Below are positions 16,091 through 50,636 of a stretch of 64,000 nt of DNA, piece by piece; within the stretch, counting starts at the first letter, position 1; the number at the start of each line of letters is the position of its first letter. The notes under the pieces were generated by a model. It was not told where the DNA came from. It worked only from the letters and a program-made list of their open reading frames with translations, and ran no database searches. The stretch is from an uncultured Gammaproteobacteria bacterium (GTDB taxonomy: Bacteria > Patescibacteriota > Patescibacteriia > UBA1558 > S5-K13), in NCBI GenBank assembly GCA_964640635.1, contig CAZXFD010000003.1, positions 65,149-129,148 of the forward strand. Direction: 5' to 3'. The translations under genes were made by a program, and so were the position numbers.

Positions 16091-16315
16091 CAGCAAGAAA
16101 TGAATAGCATGTTGATCTTTGTGTTACTAAATATATTAATCAAGTATCGAATAATTTTTTGTATTTTAGAGATATGTGAATAAGTTTATGTAGTCTATAA
16201 ATTAGTAGAATTTTTTCATTTACTATGATAAAATGTATTTATAAATTTTATTTATGAAATGTTCAGCTATGCTTACTATATTAAGACGTTAGTGAGCGAC
16301 TGGACAAAAAACAAA

Positions 16316-17347
16316 ATGGAAATAAATAGTTTATTAAAAGAAGCTGTTGAAAAAGGTGCGTCAGATCTTCATTTGGCAGTAGGACATAATCCCATTATAA
16401 GAATTGATGGAGAAATGATAGAATTAGATAGTTACGGAGAAATATCTGTTACAGAGAATAAAAAAATGATTGATAGTATTTTGACAGTGAATCAAAAAAA
16501 GAAATATCAAGACGAAAGAGAGTTGGATTTATCTTATGAAATAAATAAGGTTGGAAGATTTAGAATAAATTTATTTTGGGAAAGAGATAATCCAGGACTT
16601 GTTGCAAGAATTATAAATCATGAAATTCCAGAACTTGAAGATATTGGATTGGGTGAAGTTGTTTTGAAAATGCTAAAACAAAAACAGGGACTTATACTTG
16701 TTACTGGTCTTACGGGAAGTGGAAAGTCAACTACACTTGCCTCTATGGTGAATTATTTGAATAAAAATGATTCTTTAGCAATAGTTACATTAGAGGATCC
16801 AATAGAGTATCTTTTTCCAAAATCAAAAAGCATAATTGCTCAAAGAGAATTAGGATCTGATATGCTTAGTTTCGCAGAAGGATTAAGACATGTATTAAGA
16901 CAAGATCCAAATGTTATTATGGTAGGAGAAATGAGAGATTTAGAATCTATTGCATTAGTTTTAACGCTTGCGGAAACAGGACATTTGGTTTTGGCTACAA
17001 TTCATACACCAAGTGCAGCACAAGTGGTAGATAGAATAATAGATGTTTTTCCAGCCTACCAACAGCAACAAATTAGATTACAGTTTGCAACTATTTTAAC
17101 GGGTGTAATATCTCAACAATTGTTGCCAAAGAAAGGCGGAGGAAGAATTGCTGCAAGAGAGGTATTATTAAACACCCCAGCAGTTTCAAACATTATAAGA
17201 GAAAACAAAATCCCACAGATAAAAACAGTTCTTCAAACTAGCGCAGACAAAGGCATGATGACAATGAATCAGTCAATTAAGTCTCTCTATGAAAATGATT
17301 TAATAGATAAAGATATTGCAAAAAGTTATTTTGTCGAAGAAGATTAA
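16316..17347 (+). CDS. pilT: type IV pilus retraction ATPase PilT
   Basis: N-terminal MEINSLLKEAVEKGASDLHL; Walker A GLTGSGKSTTL; GEMRD and ATIHT motifs; start moved to Met 16316 from the ORF-track 16259. Confidence 0.85.
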   Translation: MEINSLLKEAVEKGASDLHLAVGHNPIIRIDGEMIELDSYGEISVTENKKMIDSILTVNQKKKYQDERELDLSYEINKVGRFRINLFWERDNPGLVARIINHEIPELEDIGLGEVVLKMLKQKQGLILVTGLTGSGKSTTLASMVNYLNKNDSLAIVTLEDPIEYLFPKSKSIIAQRELGSDMLSFAEGLRHVLRQDPNVIMVGEMRDLESIALVLTLAETGHLVLATIHTPSAAQVVDRIIDVFPAYQQQQIRLQFATILTGVISQQLLPKKGGGRIAAREVLLNTPAVSNIIRENKIPQIKTVLQTSADKGMMTMNQSIKSLYENDLIDKDIAKSYFVEED

Positions 17348-20928: not shown

Positions 20929-22083
20929 TCATTGATCTAATGCATCTAGAACTTTTTGAAAGATTTTTTTCATTCTTTCTGGATCCTCGATTTTCAATGC
21001 AAGCTTTTCGCACAGCTTCTTTACCCGTTCATTTTCAGAGCTTAGATTTTTTAGAATGACATCCTTCTTGCTTTCAAGTAGTCCTTTAGAAATTTTCAAT
21101 GCAAGCTTTTCACAAAGTTCAACAACATATTTATTCTCAGACCTTTGACAATCTATTAGATATTCCAAATACTCGATTAAATCTTTTTCATCTATTTTTA
21201 GTGCAAGTTCTTTGCATAGATTAGAAAGATGTTTGAACTTCAGATGAATGCTCTGAGCTTTTTGACAAGCGATTAGATATTTGAGTTCTTTTGCCAAATC
21301 TTCTGAGCATATTTTCATGGCAAGTTGTTTGCAGACAAATTGATCAAACCAATCACTACCGAAATTAATACTTGCTATAAGACTTGTTTGATCTTTTATT
21401 GGACCATCAAACCAATTAATTATTTGATATTCTCTATGGACTAAATTTTTCACAAAATATTTTAGATATTTTATTAACTTTTCTTTTGAAATCTTTGATA
21501 ACAATTCTTGAACAATGTCCCGAGTATCAGAGCTTATTATAGGGCCACATTTAGAGGCAATATCAAGAATATAATAAAAGTTTGTAATTACAATTTCTTC
21601 GCTTACCTTTAGAAGTAGTTTTCCATAAAGTGTATTTCTACTAAGATACCATTTTTTTGCGCTTTCTGATTGTTTTTCTAGAAGCCATTTAAAATGCTTT
21701 TCTATGTGTTGTGTTGGAATTTTTAAAGCAAGGTCTTGATAAAGAGTAGAATCATCATCAAAAACACTCCTATCAACAAGATATTCAAAATATGGAATAA
21801 GATCTCCTTCTGGAATTTTCATTGCCAATTCTTTACATAAGGCACTGTCTTTGCGAATGAAGCATTTTAAGTGACTTGCTAATGAACCGGCGTCAATCCT
21901 AAGGGCAATTTCTCTACAAAGATAAGCTATTTCTTTGTCATTTGAATTTTGATAACCAAGAATTTCTTCTAATAATGGTTCTACTTTGTCTTGAAATTTT
22001 TGACCATTAAGGCTGTTTAGTCCTTGTAAAAATTCCAAGTCTGTAAGTCCATTGGATCTGATGATTTGCCACAAGCTATTCAT
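20929..22083 (-). CDS. alpha-helical repeat protein (HEAT/ARM-like, about 35-aa repeats)
   Basis: recurring C(K/R)ELA(L/M)KI..xDLI.Y(L/F)EYL units seen at least five times. Confidence 0.55.
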   Translation of the reverse strand: MNSLWQIIRSNGLTDLEFLQGLNSLNGQKFQDKVEPLLEEILGYQNSNDKEIAYLCREIALRIDAGSLASHLKCFIRKDSALCKELAMKIPEGDLIPYFEYLVDRSVFDDDSTLYQDLALKIPTQHIEKHFKWLLEKQSESAKKWYLSRNTLYGKLLLKVSEEIVITNFYYILDIASKCGPIISSDTRDIVQELLSKISKEKLIKYLKYFVKNLVHREYQIINWFDGPIKDQTSLIASINFGSDWFDQFVCKQLAMKICSEDLAKELKYLIACQKAQSIHLKFKHLSNLCKELALKIDEKDLIEYLEYLIDCQRSENKYVVELCEKLALKISKGLLESKKDVILKNLSSENERVKKLCEKLALKIEDPERMKKIFQKVLDALDQ

Positions 22084-22166
22084 TTTTTCCTCCTAGCTTT
22101 GTTTTTTTAAGTTGCTTTTTTGTGATTTGCCATAAACAAAAAATCCAGCCGAGCTGGATTTATATG

Positions 22167-34932: not shown

Positions 34933-35089
34933 AGCATCCTCCTTATTTTTTGGATATTTGTAAATATCTTAGATTTAATTGAGTTTTTTGTCAAATTAAC
35001 ACCAACCCCGGGTTGGGATCTATGAAGCCAGCTTGTTTTTTACTATATATAGATTAAAATTAAATAAGTTAATAATTTATGTGGTATAT

Positions 35090-36343
35090 ATGCAAAAAGC
35101 AATATTAGATTTTCATATTCACTCTAGGTTTTCAAGAGCATGCTCTAAGGAACTAACTTTTTCTAATATTGCAAAATGGTGTCAGATCAAAGGTATTAAT
35201 ATAGTAGGAAGTGGAGATTTTACCCACCCACAATGGATAAAAGAATTTGAAGAGCTTATGAAAAGTAATGGAAATGGATTATACCAATTAAAAAGTGGTG
35301 AATATAGCGATGTATATTTTATCCTTTCAACAGAACTCTCGTGTATATATAAGAAAAATGGAAAAGTGAGAAGAATACATATTTGTATTTTGATGCCTAG
35401 TATTGATTCAGTAAAAAAGTTTAATCAAGAATTAGTAAGTAGAGGAAAAAATCTTAAATCAGACGGTAGGCCAATTCTTGGAATGGATGTGATAGAAGTT
35501 TTGACTATTGCACTTGCTATAGATAATAAAAGTTTAATTATTCCAGCGCACATTTGGACGCCATGGTTTGCAGCAATGGGATCAAAGTCTGGTTTTGATT
35601 CCATAGAAGAATGTTTCGAAGAATATTCAAGATATATATTTGCAGTTGAGACAGGACTTTCTTCTGATCCAAAAATGAACCACTTTGTTAGCTCTTTAGA
35701 TAATTATTTATTAGTATCAAATTCTGATGCGCATAGTTTGGAAAATTTGGGAAGAGAAGCAAACGTCATGATGCTAGAAAAATTTTCTTATGACGAGATA
35801 TATAATATTTTTAAAAACTGTGATAGGAATAAATTTTTATTCACAATAGAGTTTTATCCAGAAGAGGGGACTTATCATAATGATGGACATAGAAAGTGTG
35901 GAATAAATTTTGATCCTATGAAGTCTTTGGCAAATAAAAATATTTGCCCTGTTTGTAAAAAAGAATTGACACTCGGGGTGCTTCATAGAATAGGACAGCT
36001 TAGTGATAGAAATGATAAAAAAATAAAAAAATTAAATAATTTAGAAAATAATTTTATTCCTTACAAAAAAATAATTGGCCTCAAAAAAATTATTGCAGAT
36101 GTATATAGCGTTGGAAGCCATAGTAAAAAGGTTGATAAAATTTATTTTGAGATGATAAAAAAATTTAAAAATGAGTTTAATATATTATTAGATGTTTGTC
36201 TTGAGGATTTAAAAATATTTGATAAAAAAATTTCAAGGGGTATAAATATGGTAAGAGAAAATAAAGTAGACTTAATACCAGGCTATGATGGTGAATATGG
36301 AAAGATAAATATTTTTAAAAAATTAAAAATTAAAAAAAATTAG
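35090..36343 (+). CDS. PHP-domain protein with C-terminal zinc finger, endonuclease Q-like (TIGR00375 family)
   Basis: N-terminal ILDFHIHSRFS PHP motif; CPVCKKELTLGVLHR zinc-finger-like segment; start at Met 35090. Confidence 0.5.
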   Translation: MQKAILDFHIHSRFSRACSKELTFSNIAKWCQIKGINIVGSGDFTHPQWIKEFEELMKSNGNGLYQLKSGEYSDVYFILSTELSCIYKKNGKVRRIHICILMPSIDSVKKFNQELVSRGKNLKSDGRPILGMDVIEVLTIALAIDNKSLIIPAHIWTPWFAAMGSKSGFDSIEECFEEYSRYIFAVETGLSSDPKMNHFVSSLDNYLLVSNSDAHSLENLGREANVMMLEKFSYDEIYNIFKNCDRNKFLFTIEFYPEEGTYHNDGHRKCGINFDPMKSLANKNICPVCKKELTLGVLHRIGQLSDRNDKKIKKLNNLENNFIPYKKIIGLKKIIADVYSVGSHSKKVDKIYFEMIKKFKNEFNILLDVCLEDLKIFDKKISRGINMVRENKVDLIPGYDGEYGKINIFKKLKIKKN

Positions 36344-36403: not shown

Positions 36404-36458
36404 TTGCGCAAAACAAAAATCCCTACACGACAAGTTAAGGGATTTTTGTTTTGCGCAA
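36404..36458. terminator. perfect 21-bp inverted repeat with 13-nt loop (bidirectional terminator or structured element) between convergent genes
   Basis: ttgcgcaaaacaaaaatccct / agggatttttgttttgcgcaa; arms read base by base. Confidence 0.55.
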
Positions 36459-36470
36459 GTTTGTTCACGC

Positions 36471-36611
36471 ATGAGAAATCTTATTTCTTTGATTTCTTTG
36501 CAACTTTTTTTGTTGCTTTTTTTGTTGCTTTTTTTGCAACCTTTTTTACAGGTTTCTTTGCAACTTTCTTTTTTGCAACCTTTTTTACAGGTTTCTTTGC
36601 AACTTTCTTTT
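36471..36611 (-). CDS. lysine/alanine-rich 46-aa protein (histone-H1/HU-tail-like repeats KKVAKKPVKK), not in ORF track
   Basis: minus-strand translation MAAKKKVAKKPVKKVAKKKVAKKPVKKVAKKATKKATKKVAKKSKKK; GAAAGG about 10 nt upstream; the plus-strand poly-Phe ORFs 36404..36751 and 36471..36668 are its mirror image. Confidence 0.4.
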
Positions 36612-36747
36612 TTGCTGCCATTTGTTTTATACCTTTCTTTTTATTCCAGATCCTTAATTGGATTTTAGGAATAAATTTTTTTAAACGATTCGGCGTGAGA
36701 ATTAACTCACATATTTATTATAGTTCTTTTTTTGAAAAAAAGAAATA

Positions 36748-36993
36748 CTAAACTCCAATTTTATTTCCAAATATTCCAAAGATTACACCCTCCATCAATC
36801 CTGTCATAAGTAATGCTCCAAAAATCATCATTGAAATTCCAACCAACATATAAACCAATCTACTTCCACCCTCTGATCCTAATTTTTGTTCTGCCCAATC
36901 ATTTCTTCCAAAATTTTCTACAATCCAATTTGTTTTCCATGTAACTACAAATCCAAGTATTATTATTGATAGACTTATAAAAAAATTTTTCAT
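36748..36993 (-). CDS. small membrane protein
   Basis: 81 aa; two TM helices. Confidence 0.4.
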   Translation of the reverse strand: MKNFFISLSIIILGFVVTWKTNWIVENFGRNDWAEQKLGSEGGSRLVYMLVGISMMIFGALLMTGLMEGVIFGIFGNKIGV

Positions 36994-37135: not shown

Positions 37136-38866
37136 ATGCTCAGTGATAAAAAAATAAAAAGCATTCTTGAAAAAGTAAATCTGTTTTCATCTTTGGACTT
37201 GGAAAAATTTTTAAAAGAATCTACAAAAGAAAAAAAATCTTTAGCCGAGTATTTAGTTGAAAAAAAATTATTGAGTCAGGAGGTTTTATATGAAAATATA
37301 GCAGCGAGCATCAAAATCCCATTTATTAATTTGAAAAATACCAACATTAGAAAAGATATATTGTATATGATACCGGAGTCTGTTGCTATAGCGAATAATA
37401 TTATTGCGTTTGATGGAGATAGCAAATTTATACACATCGCGCTAATTGATCCGGAAAATTTGGAAATTATAGATTTTATTAAAAGAAAGACTGGGCTTAG
37501 CGTGAAAGTATATCTCAGCACCCCTGAAAACATAAAAGAGTCTTTTAAAAAATATAGTAGAAGTCTAGAGGCGGAGTTTAAATATTTATCAGATGGAGAT
37601 GAAGAGGTAAGTAAGTTAAAAGAAACAGGAAAAAAGAAATCTATTAAAGACTTGCCAGTAGCAAAAGTTGTCGATGCAATACTAGAGCACGCTATTATGG
37701 AAGGAGCATCAGATATTCACATAGAGCCAGAAGAAAAAAATGTTTTAGTAAGATATAGATTAGATGGAATACTTCATCATGCCATGACACTGCCAAAAGA
37801 GGTTCAGTCTGGGATTATAAGTCGCATTAAAATACTTTCTAATTTAAAGGTAGATGAACATCGTTTGCCACAGGACGGTCGTTTTAAAATGTATTCTGAA
37901 AAATACAAGGTTTCTTTTAGAGTATCTGTAATTCCTACGTTTGATGGAGAAAAAATAGTAATGAGAATTTTAAATGAAAAGGCACAGGTTCTCTCTCTTG
38001 ATCAATTGGGTTTCCATACTAAGGCATATGGTGTTGTAAAAAGAAATATAGAAAAACCACATGGAATTATTCTTGTAACAGGGCCTACGGGAAGTGGTAA
38101 AACAACAACACTCTATACGATACTTAATATGTTAAATACTCCAGAGGTAAATATTTCAACTATTGAAGATCCTATTGAGTACAAAATGAAAAATGTTAAT
38201 CAGTCTCAAGTGAATCCAAAAATAGGATTTACATTTGCGTCAGGACTTAGATCACTTCTTAGACAAGATCCAGATATTATTATGGTAGGAGAAATTAGAG
38301 ATCAAGAAACAGCAGAAATAGCAATTCATTCAGCTATGACAGGGCATCTAGTTTTATCTACTATCCACACTAATGATGCCCCAACAACAATTCCAAGACT
38401 TACACAAATGAATGTGCCAACCTTTTTAATAGCATCTACATTTAATATTATCATAGCTCAAAGACTAGTCCGAAAAATATGCCCTAATTGTATTTATAGC
38501 TACAATCTTGAAAAGGCATATATAAAAGAACTAGAAAAACAAGTAGATATGGAATCAATACTTAAAACATTAGAAGAAGAAAAAGTTATTGCAAAGAAAA
38601 AAAATAAATTAGAAGAGCTGTTGTTTTATAGGGGTAAGGGTTGTGATAAGTGTGCTAATACTGGATACAAGGGTAGGCTTGGAATTTATGAGGTTCTAGA
38701 AAATGACGAAAACATGTCAGAACTGATACTCAAAAACTCTGGAGCAGAAAAAATAAAAGAATATGCAATATCCCATGGGATGCTTTCTATAGTAGAGGAC
38801 GGTTTTATAAAAGCAAAAAATGGTATTACTACTATAGAAGAAATTTTAAGAGTCGCAAAAGAATAG
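37136..38866 (+). CDS. pilB: type IV pilus assembly ATPase PilB (GspE family)
   Basis: Walker A GPTGSGKTTTLY; GEIRD; C-terminal CPNC ... CDKC tetracysteine motif. Confidence 0.9.
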   Translation: MLSDKKIKSILEKVNLFSSLDLEKFLKESTKEKKSLAEYLVEKKLLSQEVLYENIAASIKIPFINLKNTNIRKDILYMIPESVAIANNIIAFDGDSKFIHIALIDPENLEIIDFIKRKTGLSVKVYLSTPENIKESFKKYSRSLEAEFKYLSDGDEEVSKLKETGKKKSIKDLPVAKVVDAILEHAIMEGASDIHIEPEEKNVLVRYRLDGILHHAMTLPKEVQSGIISRIKILSNLKVDEHRLPQDGRFKMYSEKYKVSFRVSVIPTFDGEKIVMRILNEKAQVLSLDQLGFHTKAYGVVKRNIEKPHGIILVTGPTGSGKTTTLYTILNMLNTPEVNISTIEDPIEYKMKNVNQSQVNPKIGFTFASGLRSLLRQDPDIIMVGEIRDQETAEIAIHSAMTGHLVLSTIHTNDAPTTIPRLTQMNVPTFLIASTFNIIIAQRLVRKICPNCIYSYNLEKAYIKELEKQVDMESILKTLEEEKVIAKKKNKLEELLFYRGKGCDKCANTGYKGRLGIYEVLENDENMSELILKNSGAEKIKEYAISHGMLSIVEDGFIKAKNGITTIEEILRVAKE

Positions 38867-38932: not shown

Positions 38933-40243
38933 ATGAAACAAAAACAAGAAAATAAAAATATTTTAGTCAGCAAAATTAAGACTATACATCCTTTAAAGCA
39001 AACCAAGCCAGTTGTTAAGAAAGCGTCCAAGATAAAAAAAGAAAATCAAGAAATTGTAGTCGATGAATCTATTCTTGTAAGTGACATAAGTAAGGCTACA
39101 ACACAAAAAAGCAATGATTCTACAAATAAAAGCATAGGATTGTTTAGTGAAACCCAGAAAAGCTCTAGTACAATGGACAAAATTAATAGTTTTTTATTGA
39201 AATTAAAGAAAGTCCCACTAAAAGAAAAATTATTTTTTGTTCAACATTTGTCTTTGATGTTAAGAGTGGGAATATCTCTTTCAAAGGCTCTTTATACCTT
39301 ATCTATCCAAGCACAGAATAAATATTTTGCACTTATTTTATCTGAAATGGCAAAGAGGGTAGACTCAGGAGAGGGTTTTTCAGAAGTGCTAAAGAGATAT
39401 CCAAGAGTTTTCAATGATCTTTTTATAAATATGATAGAGGCGGGAGAGGCATCTGGAAAATTAGAAGAAGTTTTGAAACAACTTTTTGTGCAAATGAAAA
39501 AAGAGCATGCTCTTATTGCAAAAGTGCGTGGCGCTATGACTTATCCAGCGGTAATTCTTATTGCACTTGTTGGAATATCTATTTTTATGATGGTTGTAGT
39601 TGTTCCGGGAATGACAGCAAATTTTATAGAAATGAAAGTAGAGCTTCCACTACCCACGAAAATACTTGTAGGAATAAGTAATATTTTAAGAACACAAGGG
39701 CCACTAGCAGCTGCCATTATAGCAGGACTTATAATGTTGTCTGCAAGATTTGCAAAAACAAAAAAAGGTAAAAGATTTTTTGATTCCATTATTTTGAAAT
39801 CTCCAATAGTGGGAACAATTGTAAAAAAAATTAATTTAGCTAGATTTGCTAGAAATTTAAGTTCTCTTTTGAAAACAGATATAATGATAGTTAGGGCTTT
39901 TGAAATATCTGCAGGAGTACTTGGAAATTCTTTTTATAAAGAAGCGCTACTAGACATAGGGAGTAAATTAAAAAAAGGTGAAACAATAACTGAGTCTATG
40001 AAAATTTATCCAAAATTGTTTCCACCAGTCGTCAGTCAAATGATAGCAATCGGAGAGGAAACTGGAGATTTAGATAATATATTGATAGAGCTCGCTGAGT
40101 TTTATGAGGAAGAAGTTAATCAAATCATGACTGATTTACCATCTCTTATTGAGCCAATATTAATTTTGGTGCTTGGTCTTGGAGTTGGAGGCATAGCAAT
40201 TTCAATTATAATGCCAATGTATAAAATTACCTCCGCTGTATAA
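38933..40243 (+). CDS. pilC: type IV pilus platform protein PilC (GspF family)
   Basis: 436 aa; duplicated GspF-type domains with three TM segments. Confidence 0.85.
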   Translation: MKQKQENKNILVSKIKTIHPLKQTKPVVKKASKIKKENQEIVVDESILVSDISKATTQKSNDSTNKSIGLFSETQKSSSTMDKINSFLLKLKKVPLKEKLFFVQHLSLMLRVGISLSKALYTLSIQAQNKYFALILSEMAKRVDSGEGFSEVLKRYPRVFNDLFINMIEAGEASGKLEEVLKQLFVQMKKEHALIAKVRGAMTYPAVILIALVGISIFMMVVVVPGMTANFIEMKVELPLPTKILVGISNILRTQGPLAAAIIAGLIMLSARFAKTKKGKRFFDSIILKSPIVGTIVKKINLARFARNLSSLLKTDIMIVRAFEISAGVLGNSFYKEALLDIGSKLKKGETITESMKIYPKLFPPVVSQMIAIGEETGDLDNILIELAEFYEEEVNQIMTDLPSLIEPILILVLGLGVGGIAISIIMPMYKITSAV

Positions 40244-40244
40244 T

Positions 40245-42449
40245 ATGACAAATAATTTTAATAAGAAAAATAGACGAGGTGCTTTTACTTTGATAGAGGT
40301 GCTCGTTTCTTTATTTGTGATAAGTATTGTAATGACTGGGATATATCAGCTTATTTTGTATTCTCTTGCAATAACATCTGATAATCAACACTATGTCGAG
40401 TCTATTGCTATAGCAAACCAAAAGATGGAGCAAATTAGAAATATGCCATACGATGATGTCGGTACTGTCTCTGGTAGTCCACACGGACTTATAAATGATT
40501 ATGAAAATATTGTTAGAAATGGAACGTATTCTGTACATACTGTTATACAATTTTTTGATGATCCATACGATGGAACTCTTGAAGATGAAACAGATGATAT
40601 ATTTACGGATTATAAGATAGTTACAGTGAATGTTTCATGGAATACAAGGATAGGACCAAAGAGTATAAGTGTCTTTTCAAGAGTCATTCCGCCAACAGAA
40701 GAAAATTTATCAGGATATGGGCTTTTGAAATTATTTGTAGTTGATTCCAATGGTTTGCCGGTATCAGGGGCGACAATTCATGTTGAAAATAATAGCATAA
40801 GCCCAGCTCTAGGTGTTGATTATACTTCTGATGAGGGTGGAAAGATATCTGTCCCAGTTTTACCAGCATTTCAATCTTATCAAGTTGTAGTTTCAAAGGA
40901 TGGGTATAGTGATGACGAGACATATAGTATTAGTGAGTCAAATCCAAGTCCAATAAAGAAAAATTTGAGCGTTGTTGAAAATAGAAAAACAGAAGAAAGT
41001 TTTTCAATAGATCTTATGAGTAGATTAAATATAAGAGTTGTTTCTGCAGAGTTGCCTAGTAATTTTCAAGTCAATGCAACTGGTGAATCATATTCACAAA
41101 CAAATTCAAAAACAGAAAGCGATTCAAGTGGCGAACTATACTCTATATGGAGCGATCAAGGAAGCACGACTATAGGGGTTTATATTCAAAAATATAATCA
41201 AGCGGGTGAAAGAAGATATTTATCAGATATTAAAATTAGTAGTGATATATATGGAGAGCCAGATATATCTATTAGTCCAGCTGATTCAGTTTATGTTTCT
41301 TGGTGTTCTATATCGGCTGATTGTTATTATCAAAAAATAAATAAAGACACAGGGGCAACTATTTGGGCAAGTGACAAACAAATAGAAGACTCATATAGTT
41401 CTAGTCAATCTAATTTAAAAATATTTGCATCGCCAACGAGCACGGACTTTTTCGCTACATGGCAAGACAATAAAGATGGAGATTATGATATTTACCTGCA
41501 GAAGTTTGATGAAAATGGTAGTGCGTTGTGGGCTAGTGCTATCAAAATAAATTCAAATGATGAATCATCAAACGTATCAGATCAATACGATCCAAATTTG
41601 TATATAGATAAAAATGATAATGTATATATTTCTTTTACAGATACTAGAAATTCCGTATCTTCTATATATATACAAAAAATAGATAAAAATGGAAGTAAGA
41701 TTTTCTCAAATGATGTTATGGTCAACACGTTTTCAGTAGACAATAGTCATTCAGCAGACATAGCACTAGATGCAGATGATAATATTTATGTTTCTTGGGT
41801 ATATGACAGCACAACAAATAAAAAAGTATTTGTTCAGAAATTTAATACTTCTGGGGAAAAGCAGTTTGGTAATGATATTGTTGTAAATACAGAAAGTATT
41901 ATTTCAAATAGATATTCACCAAGTATTTTATGTGATAATAATTCCAATATTTATATAGCATGGGCAGATGATAAAAATACCAATAAAGATATACATGTAC
42001 AAAAATTTTCATCATCTCTTTCTAAGACTTGGACAAATGAATTACGAGCCAATATAAACATAGGCATATCCCCACAAGATAATCCAGATATTTTTATGGA
42101 AAAGGCGGGGTATAAAATATTTGCATCATGGGATGATGATAGAAATGGAAATTTTGATATTTATTTTGGAGAAATAAGAGAATATGGAACAATTACCAAT
42201 TTAGGATCAATTCCTATAAAACTACTAAGCTCCAACAAAATAGGAAGAGATCCAGACGTGTTTAAGTATGACGATATATATAGTAGCAATTCATCGGGTA
42301 TCATTAATTTGGATCTTCCATGGGACGATGGCTACCTACTGAGTGTTGATGATACATCTTCATATGATCTTATTATGTCAGAACCATCAGAAAATATTGG
42401 TCTAGGGGCTGGAGAGACAAAAGATATTATTTTATATTTAAGTAGATAA
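40245..42449 (+). CDS. prepilin-type N-terminal domain protein fused to a Cna-B-like beta-sandwich domain and six or seven beta-propeller-like repeats (putative minor pilin / tip adhesin)
   Basis: class III signal RRGAFTLIEVLVSLFVISIV; repeats ending in (Y/V)(I/V)QK(F/I/Y) recur at about 45-aa spacing. Confidence 0.7.
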   Translation: MTNNFNKKNRRGAFTLIEVLVSLFVISIVMTGIYQLILYSLAITSDNQHYVESIAIANQKMEQIRNMPYDDVGTVSGSPHGLINDYENIVRNGTYSVHTVIQFFDDPYDGTLEDETDDIFTDYKIVTVNVSWNTRIGPKSISVFSRVIPPTEENLSGYGLLKLFVVDSNGLPVSGATIHVENNSISPALGVDYTSDEGGKISVPVLPAFQSYQVVVSKDGYSDDETYSISESNPSPIKKNLSVVENRKTEESFSIDLMSRLNIRVVSAELPSNFQVNATGESYSQTNSKTESDSSGELYSIWSDQGSTTIGVYIQKYNQAGERRYLSDIKISSDIYGEPDISISPADSVYVSWCSISADCYYQKINKDTGATIWASDKQIEDSYSSSQSNLKIFASPTSTDFFATWQDNKDGDYDIYLQKFDENGSALWASAIKINSNDESSNVSDQYDPNLYIDKNDNVYISFTDTRNSVSSIYIQKIDKNGSKIFSNDVMVNTFSVDNSHSADIALDADDNIYVSWVYDSTTNKKVFVQKFNTSGEKQFGNDIVVNTESIISNRYSPSILCDNNSNIYIAWADDKNTNKDIHVQKFSSSLSKTWTNELRANINIGISPQDNPDIFMEKAGYKIFASWDDDRNGNFDIYFGEIREYGTITNLGSIPIKLLSSNKIGRDPDVFKYDDIYSSNSSGIINLDLPWDDGYLLSVDDTSSYDLIMSEPSENIGLGAGETKDIILYLSR

Positions 42450-43031
42450 ATGAAACAAATTTCTAACAATAGAGCATTTACAATGATTGAAATTCTTGTG
42501 GCAATGGCGATCACCTCGATCATTATTTTGATTTTTAATCAGTTTTTGATTGTTGGATTTAAATCTACTACATTCAATATGGAACAAGAAGAGGCAATAA
42601 GTCATGCAAGAAATGCTGTGGACACAATGACACAAGAGATAAGAGGGGCCAACTCTTCAGACAAGGGAAATTATGCCCTATCTCAAATAGGTGCCAACGA
42701 TTTCATTTTTTACAATGATATAAATAAAGATGGTAAAAGAGAAAAAATAAGATATTATTTGAGCGGATATGAACTGCGAAAAGATATTACAAGCCCAGGA
42801 GCAGACAATAATTATACGGGCACTTCAACTATGAGTATTTTGTCTAAGTATGTTAATAATCAAGGAGAGTCAATTTTTAAGTATTATGACAATGCAAGGG
42901 TAGAAACAAATTTGATAGACAGAGTAAAATTAATTTCTATCAAATTAATGATAAACGTAACACCAGGGAGAGCCCCAGATGATTATATACTTGAAACAGA
43001 TATTACATTTAGAAATTTGATTAATTTATGA
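42450..43031 (+). CDS. prepilin-type minor pilin (PilW/GspJ-like)
   Basis: NRAFTMIEILVAMAITSIIIL class III signal; 193 aa. Confidence 0.7.
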   Translation: MKQISNNRAFTMIEILVAMAITSIIILIFNQFLIVGFKSTTFNMEQEEAISHARNAVDTMTQEIRGANSSDKGNYALSQIGANDFIFYNDINKDGKREKIRYYLSGYELRKDITSPGADNNYTGTSTMSILSKYVNNQGESIFKYYDNARVETNLIDRVKLISIKLMINVTPGRAPDDYILETDITFRNLINL

Positions 43032-44524
43032 TTTATAAAAACAAAAAGGGTAGTGTGCTTTTTTTATCACTTGTTTTAACAGGAATATTTTTTATTATTC
43101 TATCTTCTTCTATAGGACTTGGTCTTACTAGACAAAGATTCAATAAGACAAAGGTTTCAAGTGCGCAAGCGCTCAATATTGCAGAGGCAGGTATCAATTA
43201 TTATAAATGGGTCTTGTATCATGATAAGGAAGAATATTGTAATAATGAAACTTGTCTACCAGGGCCTGACTATGGTCCCTATGGTCCATATGAATATGGC
43301 GATCAAAATTCTGAGACTAGAGGTTTTTATGAATTATATATTACCCCACCAGAAGCAGATGGCGCAAAAGTAATAAAGATAAAATCAATTGCATGGACAG
43401 AAAAACATCCAAACATAAAAAGAACTATTGAGGTAACTTGTGGAGCTCCGTCTTGGTCATCTTTTGCAGTAATGTCTAATTCGGATATAAGATTTGGAGA
43501 AGGCACAGAAACTTGGGGGCCAATTCATTCAAATGGTGGAATTAGATTTGATGGCATTGCTCACAATATTATATCCTCCAGCGTGCTTAGCTATGATGAT
43601 CCAGATCATGAAGGAGGAAATGAATTTGGAGTTCACACACACACACCCATACTAGATCCATCTCCAGACTCAAATAATCCCCCACAGAACGTTCCAAACA
43701 GACCAGATACATTTATTTCAGGAAGAACCTTTCCGGTGCCAACGGCAAGTTTTGATTTATTAGATAATTATGTTAGTGATGTTTTACAGGTTGCAAGTAC
43801 AACAGGGGGTCTTATTCTAAATCCCACTGGAGCAAAGGGGTATCACATAAAATTCAATACAAATAATACAATGGATATAAAAATTGTAAATACAATAAGC
43901 AATCCATGTTCTCGTTGTATTGAAACCGGGTGTACGAGATATAAATGGGGTATTTGTATTTCTTGGGGTTGCACACAATATGAAAGCACAGAAACATATG
44001 GCATTACAAGAGAAACAAATTTATATTTATCAAAACCAATACCTGCGAATGGTATCATATTTGTAAAAGATAATGTCTGGATAGAGGGAGCAATCCATGG
44101 AACAAGAGTAACTGTTTTAGCATTCAAAGAACCACTTACAGGAAGTAATACGGATATAATAATCAATAGTGATATATCATATACTCATCATGACGGAACA
44201 GATGCGATAGGTCTTATAGCTCAGAGAAATATTTTGGTTGGGCTAGACTCTTTAAATCAGCTTCATATAGATGCTTCTATGATCGCAAAGGATGGTATGA
44301 TAGGTAGAGAATATTATATTCAAGATTGTGGGGGACATTATCAAAGACATAGTATAGATATATATGGATCTATTGCATCAAATCTTAGGTATGGATTTTC
44401 TTACACAGATGGATCTGGATACGATATAAGAAATATTAGTTTTGATAATAATTTAAAGTTTTTCCCACCACCACACTTCCCAACGGTTGGAGAATATGTT
44501 TTTTTATCTTGGGAAGAAAAATAG
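43028..44524 (+). CDS. pilus-associated protein with N-terminal hydrophobic anchor (PilX-like?)
   Basis: 498 aa; 4-bp overlap with upstream pilin gene; N-terminal TM; no confident family. Confidence 0.5.
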   Translation: MIYKNKKGSVLFLSLVLTGIFFIILSSSIGLGLTRQRFNKTKVSSAQALNIAEAGINYYKWVLYHDKEEYCNNETCLPGPDYGPYGPYEYGDQNSETRGFYELYITPPEADGAKVIKIKSIAWTEKHPNIKRTIEVTCGAPSWSSFAVMSNSDIRFGEGTETWGPIHSNGGIRFDGIAHNIISSSVLSYDDPDHEGGNEFGVHTHTPILDPSPDSNNPPQNVPNRPDTFISGRTFPVPTASFDLLDNYVSDVLQVASTTGGLILNPTGAKGYHIKFNTNNTMDIKIVNTISNPCSRCIETGCTRYKWGICISWGCTQYESTETYGITRETNLYLSKPIPANGIIFVKDNVWIEGAIHGTRVTVLAFKEPLTGSNTDIIINSDISYTHHDGTDAIGLIAQRNILVGLDSLNQLHIDASMIAKDGMIGREYYIQDCGGHYQRHSIDIYGSIASNLRYGFSYTDGSGYDIRNISFDNNLKFFPPPHFPTVGEYVFLSWEEK

Positions 44525-44613: not shown

Positions 44614-45750
44614 ATGATAGAAGTAAATAATTATCCCATAGGAATAGATATTTCAGATCTTTCTCTGAAACTTGTTCAACTTGCAAAATCAGGAGATAAA
44701 ATTATTCTCAAAGCTTTTTCTAGTAAAAAAATAAAGAAAGGAATTATAGAAAATGGAGAAATAAAAGATAAGGAGTTGTTTATTTCAAATATTAAAGAAA
44801 TGTTAGATAAGCCAATTTATGGTAAAGTATCTGGTGATGAGGCCGTCATTTGCCTTCCAGAGCCACAGACATTTATTAAGTTATTGAAAATAGAGAATAC
44901 ACAAAATAAAATAAGAGAAGAAATAAAATTACAATTAGAGAATTCTTTTCCAGTTGCACTAGAAGATATCTATTTTGATTGGCAGGAAATTCCAAGTGAA
45001 TTTGAAAACAAATTAGTGCTTGTTGGTGCATCTCCAAAAAACTTTGTTGATGATTATATAGGTGTTTTAAAGGATGCAAAATTATCAGTAATGGCTTGTG
45101 ACATAGAATCGGTTGCAATAAGTCGTGCCATTCTTCAAGAAGAGTCGCCACATTTTAAAACGCCAGAGAACAGAAAAACATATGGAATTATAGATATAGG
45201 GGCAAGTAGAAGTAGTTTTTTTGCATATTCAAAAAATACTATACTTTTTGATATAAGCATACCAATATCAGGAGAAGAAATCACAAGAAAGATAGCAAAG
45301 TCTTTAGAACTTGATATGAGTAAGGCAGAGCTTGCTAAAATAAGTATTGGTTTTGATAGCAAAAAAGCAAATGGTCTTGTAAATAAGGCGCTTACAGATA
45401 TGGTTGATAAATTAATCAGAAGAATAGAAGGAGTTTTTGATTTCCATGCAAGCTATTTTTCTGAATTTGGAAATATAGAACAAATTTATTTATGTGGAGG
45501 CGTGGCAAATATCAAAAATATAGACAAATTAATAGAACAACAAATAAAAGTTCCTACAAAAATAGCAGATCCACTTATTAATATTAAAAAGGGTGAAGAT
45601 ATATTAAAAGAATTTGAAGAAGTTTATGAACTTAAAATAGAATCAAACAATAAAAAGTCCAAAGAAGATAGTTTAGTTTATAAACAAAGTTCTACGGCAA
45701 ATTATACTACAGCGATAGGACTTGCTCTTAGATCTATTTTTTTAGAATAA
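44614..45750 (+). CDS. pilM: type IV pilus assembly protein PilM (actin-like ATPase fold)
   Basis: N-terminal IGIDISDLSLKLVQL and FtsA/PilM-like organisation. Confidence 0.65.
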   Translation: MIEVNNYPIGIDISDLSLKLVQLAKSGDKIILKAFSSKKIKKGIIENGEIKDKELFISNIKEMLDKPIYGKVSGDEAVICLPEPQTFIKLLKIENTQNKIREEIKLQLENSFPVALEDIYFDWQEIPSEFENKLVLVGASPKNFVDDYIGVLKDAKLSVMACDIESVAISRAILQEESPHFKTPENRKTYGIIDIGASRSSFFAYSKNTILFDISIPISGEEITRKIAKSLELDMSKAELAKISIGFDSKKANGLVNKALTDMVDKLIRRIEGVFDFHASYFSEFGNIEQIYLCGGVANIKNIDKLIEQQIKVPTKIADPLINIKKGEDILKEFEEVYELKIESNNKKSKEDSLVYKQSSTANYTTAIGLALRSIFLE

Positions 45751-45754
45751 TAAT

Positions 45755-46279
45755 ATGATAGAAATAAATATATTACCAGAAGAATCTAAGAGAAGAATAA
45801 AAACAGACAATATTTATTCTTCTACTAAAAAAATGTTTTTGGTTTTGACGTTGATGGTTTTATTCCTATCCACAATATTGCTTTTGGCACGAATAGCTCT
45901 CAAGTATCAAGTAGATGCTTTTAAAAACTTTTCTGAAATTTATGAAGCATCGAGTAGTACAAGTCCCACCACCAAGAACATAGAAGATGAGGTTATAATG
46001 ATAAAAAAAATTCAAGCAGATCATATAGATTGGTATGAAACCATAGCGAACTTAACGGCTGTATTAGATGGGGATATTATAGTTGAGTCAATTTCGATAG
46101 ACAAAGATACGGCATCTCTTTCTATAGGTGGGGTTGCAAAAACTAGAGAAGCCCTCTTGAAATTAAAGGCAAATTTAGAGGGTGCTGGTAAATATTCATC
46201 AATTGATTTTCCAGTAAAAACATTATTAGAAAAAGAGAATATTAAGTTTGATATTAAAATGAATATAAAGTTTATATGA
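45755..46279 (+). CDS. PilN-like bitopic membrane protein
   Basis: single TM after a short cytoplasmic N-terminus; position after pilM. Confidence 0.4.
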   Translation: MIEINILPEESKRRIKTDNIYSSTKKMFLVLTLMVLFLSTILLLARIALKYQVDAFKNFSEIYEASSSTSPTTKNIEDEVIMIKKIQADHIDWYETIANLTAVLDGDIIVESISIDKDTASLSIGGVAKTREALLKLKANLEGAGKYSSIDFPVKTLLEKENIKFDIKMNIKFI

Positions 46280-46854
46280 AAACAGGGAATATAACAATAA
46301 ATTCAAATTTAAAAACAATTATATCAATAATTTTTTATATACTTTTTTTTATTTTTATACTATATTTTTTTCTTATGGGTTCTATTTCTGAAATTAAGAA
46401 AACAAGTTCAGACATAATAGATAAAAAATCAAAGACAGAGTTTTATTTTGAATCAATGAAATCTAATCAAGATTTTGGCAAGAAAATGGAAATCTTAGAC
46501 CATAAGCTTACTATAATAGAAAATTCTTTTATAGATATAAATAAGCAGGTTGATTTTATAAGGGTTATGGAGGATTTAGCAACAAAATATAATATCAAAC
46601 AAAACATTTCTATAGATAGTGTTGCTTTAAATAGTGCAGACAAATATAAAAAAGTACCAATGGATTTAGCTGTCTCTGGAAATTTTGAAGATATAATGAA
46701 TTATATATCAGCGATTGAATCTCTTAATTATTATATAAATATTAAATTTATAAATCTTTCTGCGGGGTTTATAAGTGCTAATTTTGGGGATCCACAGGCT
46801 CCACAAAAAAAAGGAATTAGCGGAATAATTAAAACGGATACGTATTGGAAATAA
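46276..46854 (+). CDS. PilO-like bitopic membrane protein
   Basis: single TM; 4-bp overlap with the previous gene. Confidence 0.35.
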   Translation: MKTGNITINSNLKTIISIIFYILFFIFILYFFLMGSISEIKKTSSDIIDKKSKTEFYFESMKSNQDFGKKMEILDHKLTIIENSFIDINKQVDFIRVMEDLATKYNIKQNISIDSVALNSADKYKKVPMDLAVSGNFEDIMNYISAIESLNYYINIKFINLSAGFISANFGDPQAPQKKGISGIIKTDTYWK

Positions 46855-46855: not shown

Positions 46856-47164
46856 ATGAAAAAATTGTTTCAAAATAAAGGAATTACAAGAAAAAAAATA
46901 ATTAGGTATTTTTATTCTATTTCTATTACGATATTTTTAGCGTCATTAGTACTTTTATTTATTTTTATAAAGAAAAATGTTTATGAGGTTATAGAAAATG
47001 GACAGGTTTTAGCAGAGATGAAAATAAAAACAGATTTTGTATCCTTGAATATGAGTCAAGAGAAGTTTGATAAATTAGTATTTGACATAGATAACGCCGT
47101 GAGTAAAATAGAACAAAAAGAGACTATTCAGAAATCAAGTAAAGTCAAAAATCCTTTTTATTGA
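46856..47164 (+). CDS. small bitopic membrane protein (pilus cluster, PilP-like position)
   Basis: 102 aa; one TM. Confidence 0.3.
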   Translation: MKKLFQNKGITRKKIIRYFYSISITIFLASLVLLFIFIKKNVYEVIENGQVLAEMKIKTDFVSLNMSQEKFDKLVFDIDNAVSKIEQKETIQKSSKVKNPFY

Positions 47165-49020: not shown

Positions 49021-49158
49021 ATGCCAAAGCGAACATTTCAACCAAAAAAGATAAAAAGAGCCAAAAGACATGGTTTTATGCAAAGAATGTCTAGTGTTGG
49101 CGGCAAAAGAGTGTTGTCTAGTAGACGTGCAAAGGGTAGAAAAAAACTTAGCGCCTAA
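49021..49158 (+). CDS. rpmH: 50S ribosomal protein L34 (45 aa, below ORF-track cutoff)
   Basis: translation [45 protein letters not shown] matches the bL34 consensus. Confidence 0.9.
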
Positions 49159-49162
49159 ATTT

Positions 49163-49558
49163 ATGCTTGCTAAAAAATTTAGAATAAAATTTAAAAAGGA
49201 CTTTGATAATATATTAAAGTCGCGAAATAAATTTTTTAGTAATAATTTCAGCATAAAATTTTATCCAAATTATCAGGATATAAGCAAGTTTTCTATAGTT
49301 GTTTCAACAAAAATTTCAAAGAAAGCAACGGTAAGAAATCAACTTCGAAGAAGAATATTTGAAATTTTAAGACTTAAAATGCCAAATATAAAATCTGGAT
49401 ATAGTGTTATGATATTTGCAAAACAGGGCGCTATATTATTAGATTATGAAAATTTAGAGCAAGAAATCTTTTATCTATTAAATAAGTCTAGGTTACTTAA
49501 ATATGAAAAAGATACTCTTAAAGATTATAAGAATTTATCAAAAAACCATATCTCCTGA
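49163..49558 (+). CDS. rnpA: RNase P protein component
   Basis: starts [15 protein letters not shown] 4 nt after the rpmH stop; [28 protein letters not shown] matches the RnpA RNR-like motif; ORF-track entry 49070 is over-extended. Confidence 0.8.
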
Positions 49559-49736
49559 TCATGGATTTTTTGCATATAAACATCCCGCTGGACTTTGTAG
49601 ATATTATCCAAGTTGTTCGCAGTATGGGTACAATGCTATTTCAAAACATGGCGTTATGCAGGGCTTGTTTATGACAGTTAAGAGAATTCTAAGATGTAAT
49701 CCATTTTCAAAAGGAGGATATGATCCGGTAGAATAA
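49503..49736 (+). CDS. yidD: membrane protein insertion efficiency factor YidD
   Basis: [19 protein letters not shown] ... [16 protein letters not shown] signature. Confidence 0.8.
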
Positions 49737-49880
49737 TTTTCAATTTTAAATTTTCAAATGATTTATTATTTATGTATTTGTAAATTCTAATAGTAAATAT
49801 ATAAATAATAAATTAATAACAAAATCAAAAATAACAAATAACAAATAACAAATCTCGCTAAGCGAGATAAATAAAACAAT

Positions 49881-50636
49881 ATGGGTAATTTATTTCACGT
49901 AGTTTTGTATCAACCACTTTTTAATCTACTAGTGTTTTTTTATAATCTTATTCCAGATATAGGTGTTTCTATTATAATCATTACTCTTATAGTGAAGATA
50001 ATTTTATTTCCACTTTCTAGAAAAGCTGCAAAATCTCAAAGAGCTTTGCAACTCATGCAACCAAAAATAGAAGCATTGAAAGCACAGTACAAAGATGATA
50101 AAGAAAAATTAGCAAAGGAAACAATGCTTCTTTATAAAAATGAAAAGATAAATCCATTTTCATCATGCTTACCACTTTTGATACAGTTCCCAATTATTAT
50201 AGCTGTTTATCAGGTATTTATGAGTGGACTTAAAGTAAACGATTTTCAAGAATTATATAGTTTTATTACAAATCCAGGAGTAATAAATACAACAATGCTT
50301 GGTATTTCATGGCTCGATTTATCAAAGCCATTAATATTTCTTGGAGTACTTGCTGGCGCAGCACAATTTTGGCAAAGTAGGATTTTGATGGCAAAAACTA
50401 AACTACACAAAGTAAATGACGATAAGAAAGAGCCGGGAATTCCAGAGATGATGAATAAGCAGATGATGTATATGATGCCTATTATCACAGTTGTAATTAG
50501 CGCATCTCTTCCAGGTGGACTTGCACTATATTGGTTTGTGATGACTTTGTTTAGTGTATTCGAACAATATTTAGCAAATAAGTCTATTGCTCAGAAAGAT
50601 GGCAACATTGTGCCAGAGGTTATTGATATAAAATAG
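49881..50636 (+). CDS. yidC: membrane protein insertase YidC (short Oxa1-type form)
   Basis: 251 aa, 5 TM; N-terminal LYQPLFNLLVFFYN and conserved hydrophilic-groove region. Confidence 0.85.
   Translation: MGNLFHVVLYQPLFNLLVFFYNLIPDIGVSIIIITLIVKIILFPLSRKAAKSQRALQLMQPKIEALKAQYKDDKEKLAKETMLLYKNEKINPFSSCLPLLIQFPIIIAVYQVFMSGLKVNDFQELYSFITNPGVINTTMLGISWLDLSKPLIFLGVLAGAAQFWQSRILMAKTKLHKVNDDKKEPGIPEMMNKQMMYMMPIITVVISASLPGGLALYWFVMTLFSVFEQYLANKSIAQKDGNIVPEVIDIK

Follow-up and report, generated by a model that had tools for sequence, protein, structure and literature searches.

A 734-residue protein encoded in a type IV pilus operon of Patescibacteria (CPR) combines a prepilin signal and a small pilin head with a module, a predicted β-propeller, that is inserted between two β-sandwich domains (Table 1). 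With a probability of about 0.55, its gene is read as that of a core minor pilin of modular build, which belongs to a type IVa-like pilus, is located at the pilus tip and presents a fast-diverging binding module. A role of this module in host binding is proposed on the basis of a conserved gene set that resembles a pilus tip complex and of the rapid divergence of the propeller. The protein is a tidy, real example of the already recognised modular pilin design and not a new kind of system. As there are published precedents both for modular pilins (PMC8179133) and for a CPR minor pilin with a propeller (PMC11623550), its novelty is lower than implied by the sequence-only reading of the window, i.e. 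the whole 64-kb stretch of DNA that was analysed.

Table 1. Features of the propeller-bearing pilin and of the pilus genes in the 64-kb window
Feature	Position	Strand	Basis
Modular minor pilin gene (PilV-like, with propeller), 734 aa	40245..42449	+	ATG-start ORF
Leader peptide, aa 1-13 (MTNNFNKKNRRGA)	40245..40283	+	N_methyl PF07963 and TIGR02532; putative cleavage after Ala13
α1 helix of the mature pilin, aa 14-65 (FTLIE..., Glu5), polymerisation interface	40284..40439	+	AF2 helix 16-65
Small pilin head, aa 66-150, four-stranded sheet	40440..40694	+	AF2 strands 86-90, 94-104, 123-133, 138-147
CarboxypepD_reg-type β-sandwich, aa 157-268	40713..41048	+	PF13620; AF2 strands 159-267
Predicted seven-bladed β-propeller, aa 275-650	41067..42194	+	AF2, Foldseek, profile against PDB, repeat statistics
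Blades 1-7: aa 278-318, 319-366, 367-422, 423-480, 481-534, 535-589, 590-646			
C-terminal β-sandwich, aa 655-734	42207..42446	+	AF2 strands 657-733; kept in propeller-less relatives
pilB, assembly ATPase	37136..38866	+	T2SSE E 8e-133, MshEN; TIGR02538 582 bits
pilC, platform protein	38933..40243	+	T2SSF E 1e-53; stop 1 nt ahead of the pilin gene start
193-aa canonical prepilin (PilW/ComGF-like minor pilin)	42450..43031	+	N_methyl E 4.9e-7
498-aa PilX_N-like, ComZ-like pilin, β-solenoid, no Glu5; putative tip cap	43028..44524	+	
pilM	44614..45750	+	PilM_2 E 2e-41
pilN	45755..46279	+	PilN E 5e-4
pilO	46276..46854	+	PilO E 5e-5
Small conserved ORF, 102 aa, one predicted membrane helix, last of the operon	46856..47164	+	
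PilT-type retraction ATPase, 362 aa, unlinked, 23 kb upstream	16259..17347	+	T2SSE E 8.5e-49

The protein starts with the canonical class III signal that the sequence-only reading had recognised, consisting of MTNNFNKKNRRGA followed by FTLIEVLVSLFVISIVMTGIY. This signal is matched above cutoff by both N_methyl (PF07963; aa 9-34, E 1.1e-7, exceeding the gathering score) and TIGR02532. If Ala13 is the cleavage site, processing of RRGA/FTLIEVLV would place Phe at +1 and Glu at +5 of the mature pilin. Glu5 is invariant across the family alignment, and among the 33 family members with a complete N-terminus, 24 have Gly and 9 have Ala at -1. The AF2 model bears out the small pilin head that had been proposed to follow the signal: a helix (aa 16-65) precedes a four-stranded sheet (aa 86-147), with pLDDT values mostly of 82-92 that drop to 67-74 in the 101-120 loop. 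An acidic loop in the head, DDPYDGT..D..DYK (aa 105-124), is conserved within the family, the residues kept being D105, D106, D109, G110, D117, D122, Y123 and K124. Assignment of the head to a particular pilin class is weak. TIGR02523 (PilV) aligns with aa 14-68 at E 1.9e-5 and 25.2 bits, below its cutoff of 52.2, profile searches gave no above-cutoff match to either PilV or GspI (TIGR01707), and the sub-cutoff matches lie mostly within α1. The label "PilV-like" is used here as an analogy in position and size.

The domain behind the head had been proposed to be a Cna-B- or carboxypeptidase-regulatory-like β-sandwich, and it is the latter part of this proposal that stood. CarboxypepD_reg (PF13620) covers aa 164-229 (E 1.2e-8, 35.6 bits against a gathering cutoff of 32.3) and is present in 34 of the 36 family members. 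Membership in Cna-B was dropped, as the Pfam search of the 734-residue protein gave no Cna_B match at E ≤ 0.1; a SpaA prealbumin-like match was seen in only one of the 36 members. A second β-sandwich at the C-terminus (aa 655-734) had been overlooked. In BLASTP alignments, residues 649-733 follow directly behind the CarboxypepD_reg domain of P0045, P0049, P0052 and P0060.

The repeats between the two sandwiches are confidently predicted to form a seven-bladed β-propeller. The AF2 model of the complete protein (pLDDT 87.5) contains, in this order, α1, the pilin sheet, a β-sandwich, the seven-bladed propeller and a further β-sandwich, and the propeller comprises seven strand sets from aa 284 to 643. 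The repeat array is ordered, with pLDDT values of 75-95, and the possibility of a disordered low-complexity repeat was therefore dropped. The sequence-only reading had counted at least six repeats of about 45 residues and listed five ends of the type hydrophobic-QK(F/I/Y). Repeats and motif are both real, but the repeats number seven and measure 41-58 residues (mean about 53); six of the blades are closed by hydrophobic-hydrophobic-Q-K-(F/I/Y), at aa 313, 361, 417, 475, 529 and 584, while the end of the seventh is degenerate (DIYFGEI). When each repeat unit was scored with a leave-one-out HMM against 300 shuffles apiece, z values of 4.7-32.5 were obtained, and the weakest unit, R2, was beaten by one shuffle of 300. 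Pairwise self-BLASTP of the 734-residue protein detects no internal repeats, indicating that they are old and diverged.

Foldseek comparison of the model with the PDB returned 351 matches at E ≤ 1e-3 with seven-bladed propellers at the head of the list, in agreement with the propeller-like array suggested earlier. The best match is CylK (7roo, E 6e-13), and further top matches are GH145 and the PLL/PHL/CV39L lectins (TMt about 0.7), including the sugar-binding PLL2, PHL and CV39L. A family profile run against PDB sequences also finds the CylK propeller (E 8e-12), in an alignment that shares the motif D-x-Y-x-x-K-x-D-x-x-G-N-x-x-W. Weak propeller-type Pfam matches among the 36 members are to SBBP (PF06739; seven members at E ≤ 0.01, best E 7e-6, the query not among them), PD40 (three members) and Reg_prop (two members). 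At the level of sequence, the propeller thus appears to be related to CylK/SBBP-type propellers. The families named for comparison in the sequence-only reading were not found: for WD40 and PQQ, Pfam gave no match in the query (E ≤ 0.1) and none in the 36 members (E ≤ 0.01), and PilY1 (IPR008707) has no Pfam match at E ≤ 0.1 and is absent from the best 50 of the 351 Foldseek matches. Membership in these three families was dropped, as was membership in RCC1 (0/36 members at E ≤ 0.01). A search among viral folds gave generic propellers only.

A catalytic role has to be considered, because the propeller has an enzyme, CylK, as its nearest solved relative and several Foldseek matches are glycoside hydrolases or sialidases. 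The propeller could then be a pilin-delivered glycoside hydrolase, lyase or CylK-like transferase that attacks or remodels the host envelope. CylK, GH145, GH93, GH43-like propellers and sialidases are among its closest solved relatives, but identity to these enzymes is just 8-16%. Sub-threshold GH43 matches occur in 3/36 members and BNR_4 matches in another count of 3/36, whereas the query has no GH Pfam match. A peptidase module is found among the pilin modules described by Raynaud et al. (PMC8179133). The active site of CylK, however, is built with an N-terminal Ca-binding domain that is missing here (PMC8916777). In addition, the propeller residues conserved across the 36-member family sit almost wholly at periodic positions of the blade core; as judged from the alignment, this pattern is structural, with neither a unique polar cluster nor an aperiodic catalytic set visible. 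An enzymatic function is considered improbable, and a binding module is the preferred interpretation of the propeller.

Relatives of the protein show how the propeller is placed. An identical protein (P0001) is encoded on three public contigs, and about 45 full-length relatives occur in Patescibacteria MAGs; a 13-sequence profile scan of genome contigs was swamped by the generic prepilin pattern and recovered three full-length relatives. The same operon slot can also hold shorter relatives, in which the two β-sandwiches are joined directly or have other modules between them. Four such propeller-less or otherwise decorated proteins, P0051, P0045, P0049 and P0056, have aa 1-268 and 649-733 in common with the 734-residue pilin, which identifies the propeller as a swappable insert between the two β-sandwiches and not as a terminal fusion. 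Divergence increases outward along the protein, α1 being the best conserved and the propeller the fastest-diverging segment: compared with distant members, α1 retains 59%, the head 53%, the CarboxypepD_reg domain 47% and the propeller 33%, and compared with close relatives the values are 90-96% for α1 versus 65-69% for the propeller. Weaker constraint instead of adaptation could explain why the propeller diverges so quickly.

These data allow the tentative and rather doubtful proposal that the slot between pilC and the PilW-like gene is a cassette site, at which a constant scaffold accepts interchangeable or nested binding modules and the inserted module sets host or substrate recognition at the pilus tip. 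The scaffold may consist of the pilin head, the CarboxypepD_reg domain and the C-terminal β-sandwich. The slot contains the propeller here and, in other members, propellers with inserts of 400-680 aa, other β-rich modules or no module. If this proposal is correct, the module would be a host-range determinant, comparable to phage receptor-binding proteins, that is paired with an invariant ComZ-like cap.

The operon supplies the context for a minor pilin. PilB, PilC, PilM, PilN and PilO, all named in the sequence-only reading, were confirmed by profile, and the alignment subcomplex PilM-N-O takes up the stretch 44614..46854. The two additional genes described as prepilin-like differ from each other: the 193-residue protein is a canonical prepilin, with Ala at -1 here too (NNRA/FTMIE), but the 498-residue protein is non-canonical and PilX_N-like. 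The genes are tightly packed, with a 1-nt gap between pilC and the propeller pilin gene, a 0-nt gap before the 193-residue prepilin gene, which begins on the base right after the preceding stop codon, and a 4-nt overlap between this gene and that of the 498-residue protein. Such packing suggests coupled translation. The order pilB-pilC-X-prepilin-PilX-like-pilMNO is common to six divergent Patescibacteria contigs, with 33-100% identity among their X proteins, and in 6/6 loci pilO is followed by an ORF of 86-113 aa. Promoter and terminator scans stayed at background level. A PilT-type ATPase gene elsewhere in the window had been overlooked. A type II secretion pseudopilus was dropped as a candidate, as the best score of PilB is that for type IVa PilB, the window encodes PilM/N/O and PilT, and a secretin was not seen.

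The earlier statement that the window holds neither a major pilin nor pilD proved correct. A six-frame scan of the 64 kb for prepilin motifs found only the sites of the 734- and 193-residue proteins, a six-frame scan for the PilD motif G[GAS]GD[x]K gave 0 sites, and neither protein was detected by Pfam scans of 20 further window ORFs. The missing major pilin in operon and window, together with the poor fit of a bulky 80-kDa subunit into a fibre body, would be consistent with a class III signal that serves only for membrane anchoring or export. Instead of sitting at the tip of an extended pilus, the protein would then be exposed on the cell surface or carried by a short pseudopilus stub, comparable to the solute-binding proteins of the archaeal bindosome or the pseudopilins of the T2SS. 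In Sulfolobus, surface proteins that carry a prepilin signal without being fibre subunits are established. Yet the full PilB/C/M/N/O machine, the GspK-like cap and PilT argue for dynamic filaments, CPR cells show pili, and host binding by TM7x requires them (PMC11623550). A role of the signal in anchoring alone is given little credence, and a position at the tip of an extended pilus is favoured.

The products of the two genes downstream of the propeller pilin would fit a putative tip complex. The 193-residue prepilin has weak matches to ComGF, PilV and GspJ, and its position is kept in six loci. The 498-residue protein has more than 2,668 homologs, and PilX_N matches weakly in 4/6 orthologs. 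The sole significant PDB fold match of its AF2 model (pLDDT 84) is Thermus thermophilus ComZ (6qvi, E 2e-9, TMq/TMt only about 0.28), a likeness of the predicted structure that is detected by fold comparison only; profile searches of both neighbours against PDB sequences yielded no GspJ- or GspK-level matches.

As this neighbour is ComZ-like, the pilus could alternatively serve in competence. The cap would then be the DNA receptor, and the propeller pilin, instead of being a host adhesin, would partner it in the manner of PilA2 or assist at the tip as an accessory subunit, capturing DNA or bringing the tip into position. ComZ binds DNA and pairs with the GspI-like PilA2, which is encoded beside it (PMC6561018), and weak ComGE, ComGF and ComGG matches occur in the minor pilins. 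CPR bacteria are thought to rely on external nucleotides and encode ComEC/DprA alongside type IV pili (PMC5220378). A ComZ-like fold alone, however, does not carry over DNA binding, and the low TM values of the match also speak against this function. Propellers are not known to bind DNA as modules of pili, comEA, comEC and dprA are absent from the window ORFs scanned, and the propeller-pilin pilus of TM7x did not contribute to competence (PMC11623550). DNA uptake is considered less probable, though a serious alternative; it overlaps in part with the main reading, as a tip location is common to both.

The preferred host-binding reading presupposes that this organism forms pili, and the following sequence of events is proposed for it. 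A prepilin peptidase encoded elsewhere would remove the 13-residue leader, producing Phe1 and Glu5. α1 and the small head would then join two co-transcribed partners, the PilW-like prepilin and the ComZ/GspK-like cap without Glu5, on the PilC/PilM-N-O platform. By analogy with GspI-J-K, PilVWX and ComZ-PilA2, this three-subunit priming complex would end up at the pilus tip, while PilB polymerises a major pilin, likewise encoded elsewhere, beneath it. The CarboxypepD_reg and C-terminal β-sandwiches could act as a stalk that holds out the CylK/SBBP-type propeller, which is probably shown at the pilus tip and would bind a target outside the cell. The propeller would serve as a ligand-binding adhesin module in host attachment, with a glycan or protein of the host-cell surface as the probable ligand, and PilT retraction would draw the cell onto its target.

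Genetic evidence on host recognition in CPR comes from one Saccharibacterium only, in which a propeller-bearing minor pilin promotes host binding. The protein described here adds a second, unrelated propeller-pilin design from other CPR lineages, encoded in a strictly syntenic operon beside a highly conserved ComZ-like cap. Its propeller is the most freely exchanged part of the protein and thus a candidate for the specificity-determining tip module; aa 157-734 define a soluble fragment for expression. As these blades are not covered by any Pfam model, modules of this kind are under-counted when modular pilins are surveyed by signature.

Several known systems share features with this protein. 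CylK and SBBP propellers likewise have seven blades and the signature D-x-(Y/W/F)-hydrophobic-x-K-hydrophobic-D-x-x-G-N-x-x-W, but CylK works in the cytoplasm as a biosynthetic enzyme, and its active site depends on a second domain that the pilin lacks. The three adjacent pilin genes, two encoding Glu5 and one large and without it, resemble those of GspI-GspJ-GspK, PilV-PilW-PilX and ComZ-PilA2 (PMC6561018), and the large 498-residue subunit is predicted to fold like ComZ, a GspK-type cap with a β-solenoid. In the known complexes the GspI/PilV-type subunit has about 100-140 residues, whereas here it is the largest with 734, and at sequence level GspI, GspJ and GspK are matched weakly or not at all. 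PilY1/PilC of Pseudomonas, Neisseria and Myxococcus provide a functional analogy, i.e. a tip propeller on a core minor pilin complex. PilY1, however, is not a pilin, lacks a class III signal and uses its propeller for docking, while the propeller described here is covalently part of the pilin.

Modular pilins have been proposed to be tip-exposed and adhesin-like, and in the InterPro survey of Raynaud et al. (2021) N_methyl combined with PF13620 is among the 15 commonest architectures, with many representatives from CPR phyla (PMC8179133). As in PilB (vWA) and PilC (lectin) of Streptococcus sanguinis, a class III signal and a small pilin module carry grafted modules. In contrast to these pilins, the main module here is a seven-bladed propeller without a Pfam model, of which surveys by signature catch PF13620 only, and it sits between two β-sandwiches instead of being appended behind a linker. 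PilX2 of the Saccharibacterium Nanosynbacter lyticus TM7x is likewise a CPR minor pilin with a heptabladed β-propeller; its deletion halves host binding, and it was proposed to be a tip adhesin (PMC11623550). According to the published description, PilX2 is set apart by RCC1 repeats, a non-canonical PilX-type signal and a pilin-only locus, whereas the protein described here combines a canonical PilV-type signal with CylK/SBBP-like blades and is encoded between pilC and the other minor pilins.

The repeat region of the propeller pilin, the 734-aa protein of the type IV pilus locus, is an insert in a conserved pilin scaffold. The ORF, whose product is encoded in identical form on three public metagenome contigs, stands as the sequence-only reading described it, as do the surrounding pilus locus, the carboxypeptidase-regulatory-like β-sandwich (CarboxypepD_reg, PF13620, at aa 164-229, over gathering score) and the canonical class III (prepilin) signal at the N-terminus, MTNNFNKKNRRGA/FTLIEVLV (Pfam N_methyl and TIGR02532, both over threshold). 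Glu5 is present without exception across the family, while 24 members have Gly at residue -1 and 9 have Ala; Ala likewise occupies -1 in the prepilin signal of the next gene (NNRA/FTMIE).

The repeats are genuine, with a count of seven instead of "at least six" and a length of 41-58 aa instead of about 45. All seven units outscore their own shuffles in a leave-one-out HMM test (z = 4.7 to 32.5), and six of them close with hydrophobic-hydrophobic-QK-(F/I/Y), the seventh with DIYFGEI. A confident AlphaFold2 model (input, 36 family members; mean pLDDT 87.5, pTM 0.70) bears out the propeller-like fold, with seven modelled strand sets. Among 351 Foldseek matches in the PDB at E<=1e-3, the best are seven-bladed propellers, namely CylK (E 6e-13), GH145 enzymes and the sugar-binding lectins CV39L, PLL2 and PHL (TMt ~0.7), followed by six-bladed sialidases; sequence identity is 8-16% throughout. 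The CylK propeller is also recovered by the family sequence profile (E 8e-12), and its alignment identifies the 'QK' motif as a local version of the blade signature D-x-Y-hydrophobic-x-K-hydrophobic-D-x-x-G-N-x-x-W. Pfam has no repeat model that covers the blades across the 36 members scanned; SBBP matches 7 of them, and GH43, PD40 and BNR_4 match 3 each. PilY1, PQQ and WD40, the propeller families suggested earlier for comparison, match in 0/36, as does RCC1. The propeller pilin is not a PilY1 homolog. The presence of GH145 enzymes among the structural matches would suit an enzyme-bearing pilin, which is nevertheless quite improbable: the family-wide conserved propeller residues lie nearly all at periodic positions, a structural pattern, and include no unique polar cluster pointing to an active site.

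Four shorter relatives (P0045, P0049, P0052 and P0060) match aa 1-268 of the propeller pilin and then directly aa 649-733. P0051 (447 aa) carries no extra module and other relatives bear different C-terminal modules. The shorter proteins sit in the very same operon slot. The propeller itself tolerates nested modules, because one subfamily (P0214, P0218 and P0234, 1,357-1,491 aa) has a ~680-aa insertion between blades 2 and 3; in P0033 (1,086 aa) the insert is Cys-rich. In P0245, a ~420-aa insertion falls exactly in the pilin head's acidic loop, DDPYDGT..D..DYK, which is strongly conserved, common to propeller-less relatives and possibly a metal site. When 1.84 billion representatives were searched exhaustively with an HMM, 10,925 proteins matched at E<=1e-30, and the top 150 contained ~45 full-length representatives. 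Giant proteins of 2,000-7,900 aa (P0210, P0213, P0250, P0279 and others) match the propeller region in 4-21 stretches each, and outside the pilins the closest relatives come from Bacteroidota and carry T9SS sorting tails (~26% identity). Judged by these sequence matches, the propeller is a widespread extracellular module grafted into a pilin. The family belongs to Patescibacteria by the source names of its homologs (Falkowbacteria, Parcubacteria, 'Patescibacteria group').

Identity to distant members is 59% for alpha-1, 53% for the head, 47% for CarboxypepD_reg, 33% for the propeller and 35% for the C-terminal domain, and in the four close orthologs the propeller is only 65-69% identical versus 90-96% for alpha-1. 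In a comparison with the related locus L055, identity is 63% for PilB, 58% for the ComZ-like cap and 39% for the propeller pilin. The module predicted to be exposed is, by sequence comparison, the fastest-changing part of the pilus system.

The operon order pilB, pilC, propeller pilin gene, ~200-aa canonical prepilin, ~470-500-aa PilX_N-like protein, pilM, pilN, pilO and a ~90-110-aa ORF is shared by six contigs in which the slot protein has 33-100% identity to the propeller pilin. Gaps of 1 nt after pilC and 0 nt after the propeller pilin gene, followed by a 4-nt overlap, suggest co-translation of pilC and the three pilin genes. The post-pilO ORF matches no family, and an 86-113-aa ORF occupies this position in 6/6 syntenic loci. 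A major pilin and pilD are absent from the operon in all six contigs; motif scans of the window in all six frames, together with Pfam searches of another 20 ORFs, agree with the earlier reading that it holds no PilD, and detect no further prepilin. Surface-anchored display without long filaments, bindosome-like or as a pseudopilus, would fit the lack of a major pilin in operon and window, but is quite improbable. The window also encodes a PilT-type retraction ATPase that the earlier reading had missed; its gene adjoins a nucleotidyltransferase gene, with no pilin nearby.

Features of the window, of the propeller pilin and of one related contig
Feature	Position	Strand	Remarks
DnaA	58-1455	-	window start
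845-aa protein	9604-12141	+	three Lamin-tail domains, PKD domain
PilT-type retraction ATPase (T2SSE, 362 aa)	16259-17347	+	23 kb upstream of pilus operon
384-aa ORF	20929-22083	-	~seven copies of LC(K/E)xLA(L/M)KI..xDL..YL.YL
TIGR00375-like gene	35033-36343		
Phe-rich 'FFATFF' ORF	36404-36751	+	overlies T-rich tandem hairpins at 36500-36540
Propeller pilin gene	40245-42449	+	734 aa
PilW-like prepilin gene	42450-43031	+	193 aa
ComZ-like neighbour gene	43028-44524	+	498 aa
Small ORF	46856-47164	+	102 aa, one hydrophobic helix; directly after pilO
rnpA, yidD, yidC	49070-50636		just downstream of pilus operon
Alpha-1 helix	aa 16-65		AlphaFold2 model
Pilin sheet, four-stranded	aa 86-147		AlphaFold2 model
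Acidic loop	aa 105-124 (40557-40616)		pilin head
First beta-sandwich	aa 159-267		AlphaFold2 model
Propeller, seven strand sets	aa 284-643		AlphaFold2 model
Second beta-sandwich	aa 657-733		AlphaFold2 model
Relative with large insertion	L057 10001-13261		subfamily of P0214, P0218, P0234 and P0033

Elsewhere, the window (GC 30.5%; six tRNA genes, no rRNA) begins near the chromosomal origin, because DnaA lies at its start. The 845-aa protein is likely a surface protein in view of its Lamin-tail and PKD domains; the orthologous pilus operon of L055 has a similar LTD/PKD protein encoded ~9 kb further downstream, at 20900-22124. The 384-aa ORF, without a Pfam match, encodes a helical repeat protein. 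The 'FFATFF' ORF is probably no genuine gene but a terminator or repeat region that follows the TIGR00375-like gene.

The ComZ-like neighbour lacks Glu5 and any Pfam domain, has >2,668 homologs (the top 120 at 48-84% identity) and is far more conserved than the propeller pilin. Its confident model (pLDDT 84) predicts a pilin bearing a β-solenoid, with ComZ of Thermus thermophilus as the sole significant PDB fold match (E 2e-9). ComZ is a DNA-binding, GspK-like competence pilin at the tip, partnered by the adjacent GspI-like PilA2 (PMC6561018). In a DNA-uptake pilus, the propeller pilin would analogously be the partner of a ComZ-like DNA receptor, a doubtful reading that overlaps with the one we prefer. 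At a probability of roughly 55%, the propeller pilin is a core minor pilin of an assembly-priming tip complex, with the propeller as ligand-binding module. After processing of the prepilin signal by PilD, alpha-1 would join it to the PilW-like and ComZ-like subunits, and this putative complex would prime assembly on the PilC/PilMNO platform. The propeller pilin would thereby reach the tip of a filament extended by PilB and retracted by PilT, the two β-sandwiches forming the stalk and the propeller binding ligand. Of greater interest are two by-products, the cassette-like slot and the invariant ComZ-like partner.

Modular pilins are an established, widespread class with 264 architectures; N_methyl plus PF13620 ranks among the 15 most frequent, and CPR are the source of many representatives (PMC8179133). 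Full-text literature searches found no description of this particular family. TM7x PilX2, a minor pilin of CPR bacteria whose propeller is heptabladed, has been shown to promote host binding (PMC11623550), and the propeller pilin resembles it as a putative minor pilin with, by prediction, seven blades. It differs from PilX2 in pilin type (its canonical signal and PilV position), its CylK/SBBP-like rather than RCC1 propeller lineage, the insertion of the propeller between two β-sandwiches and its genomic position. The propeller pilin adds another member to an already known design.
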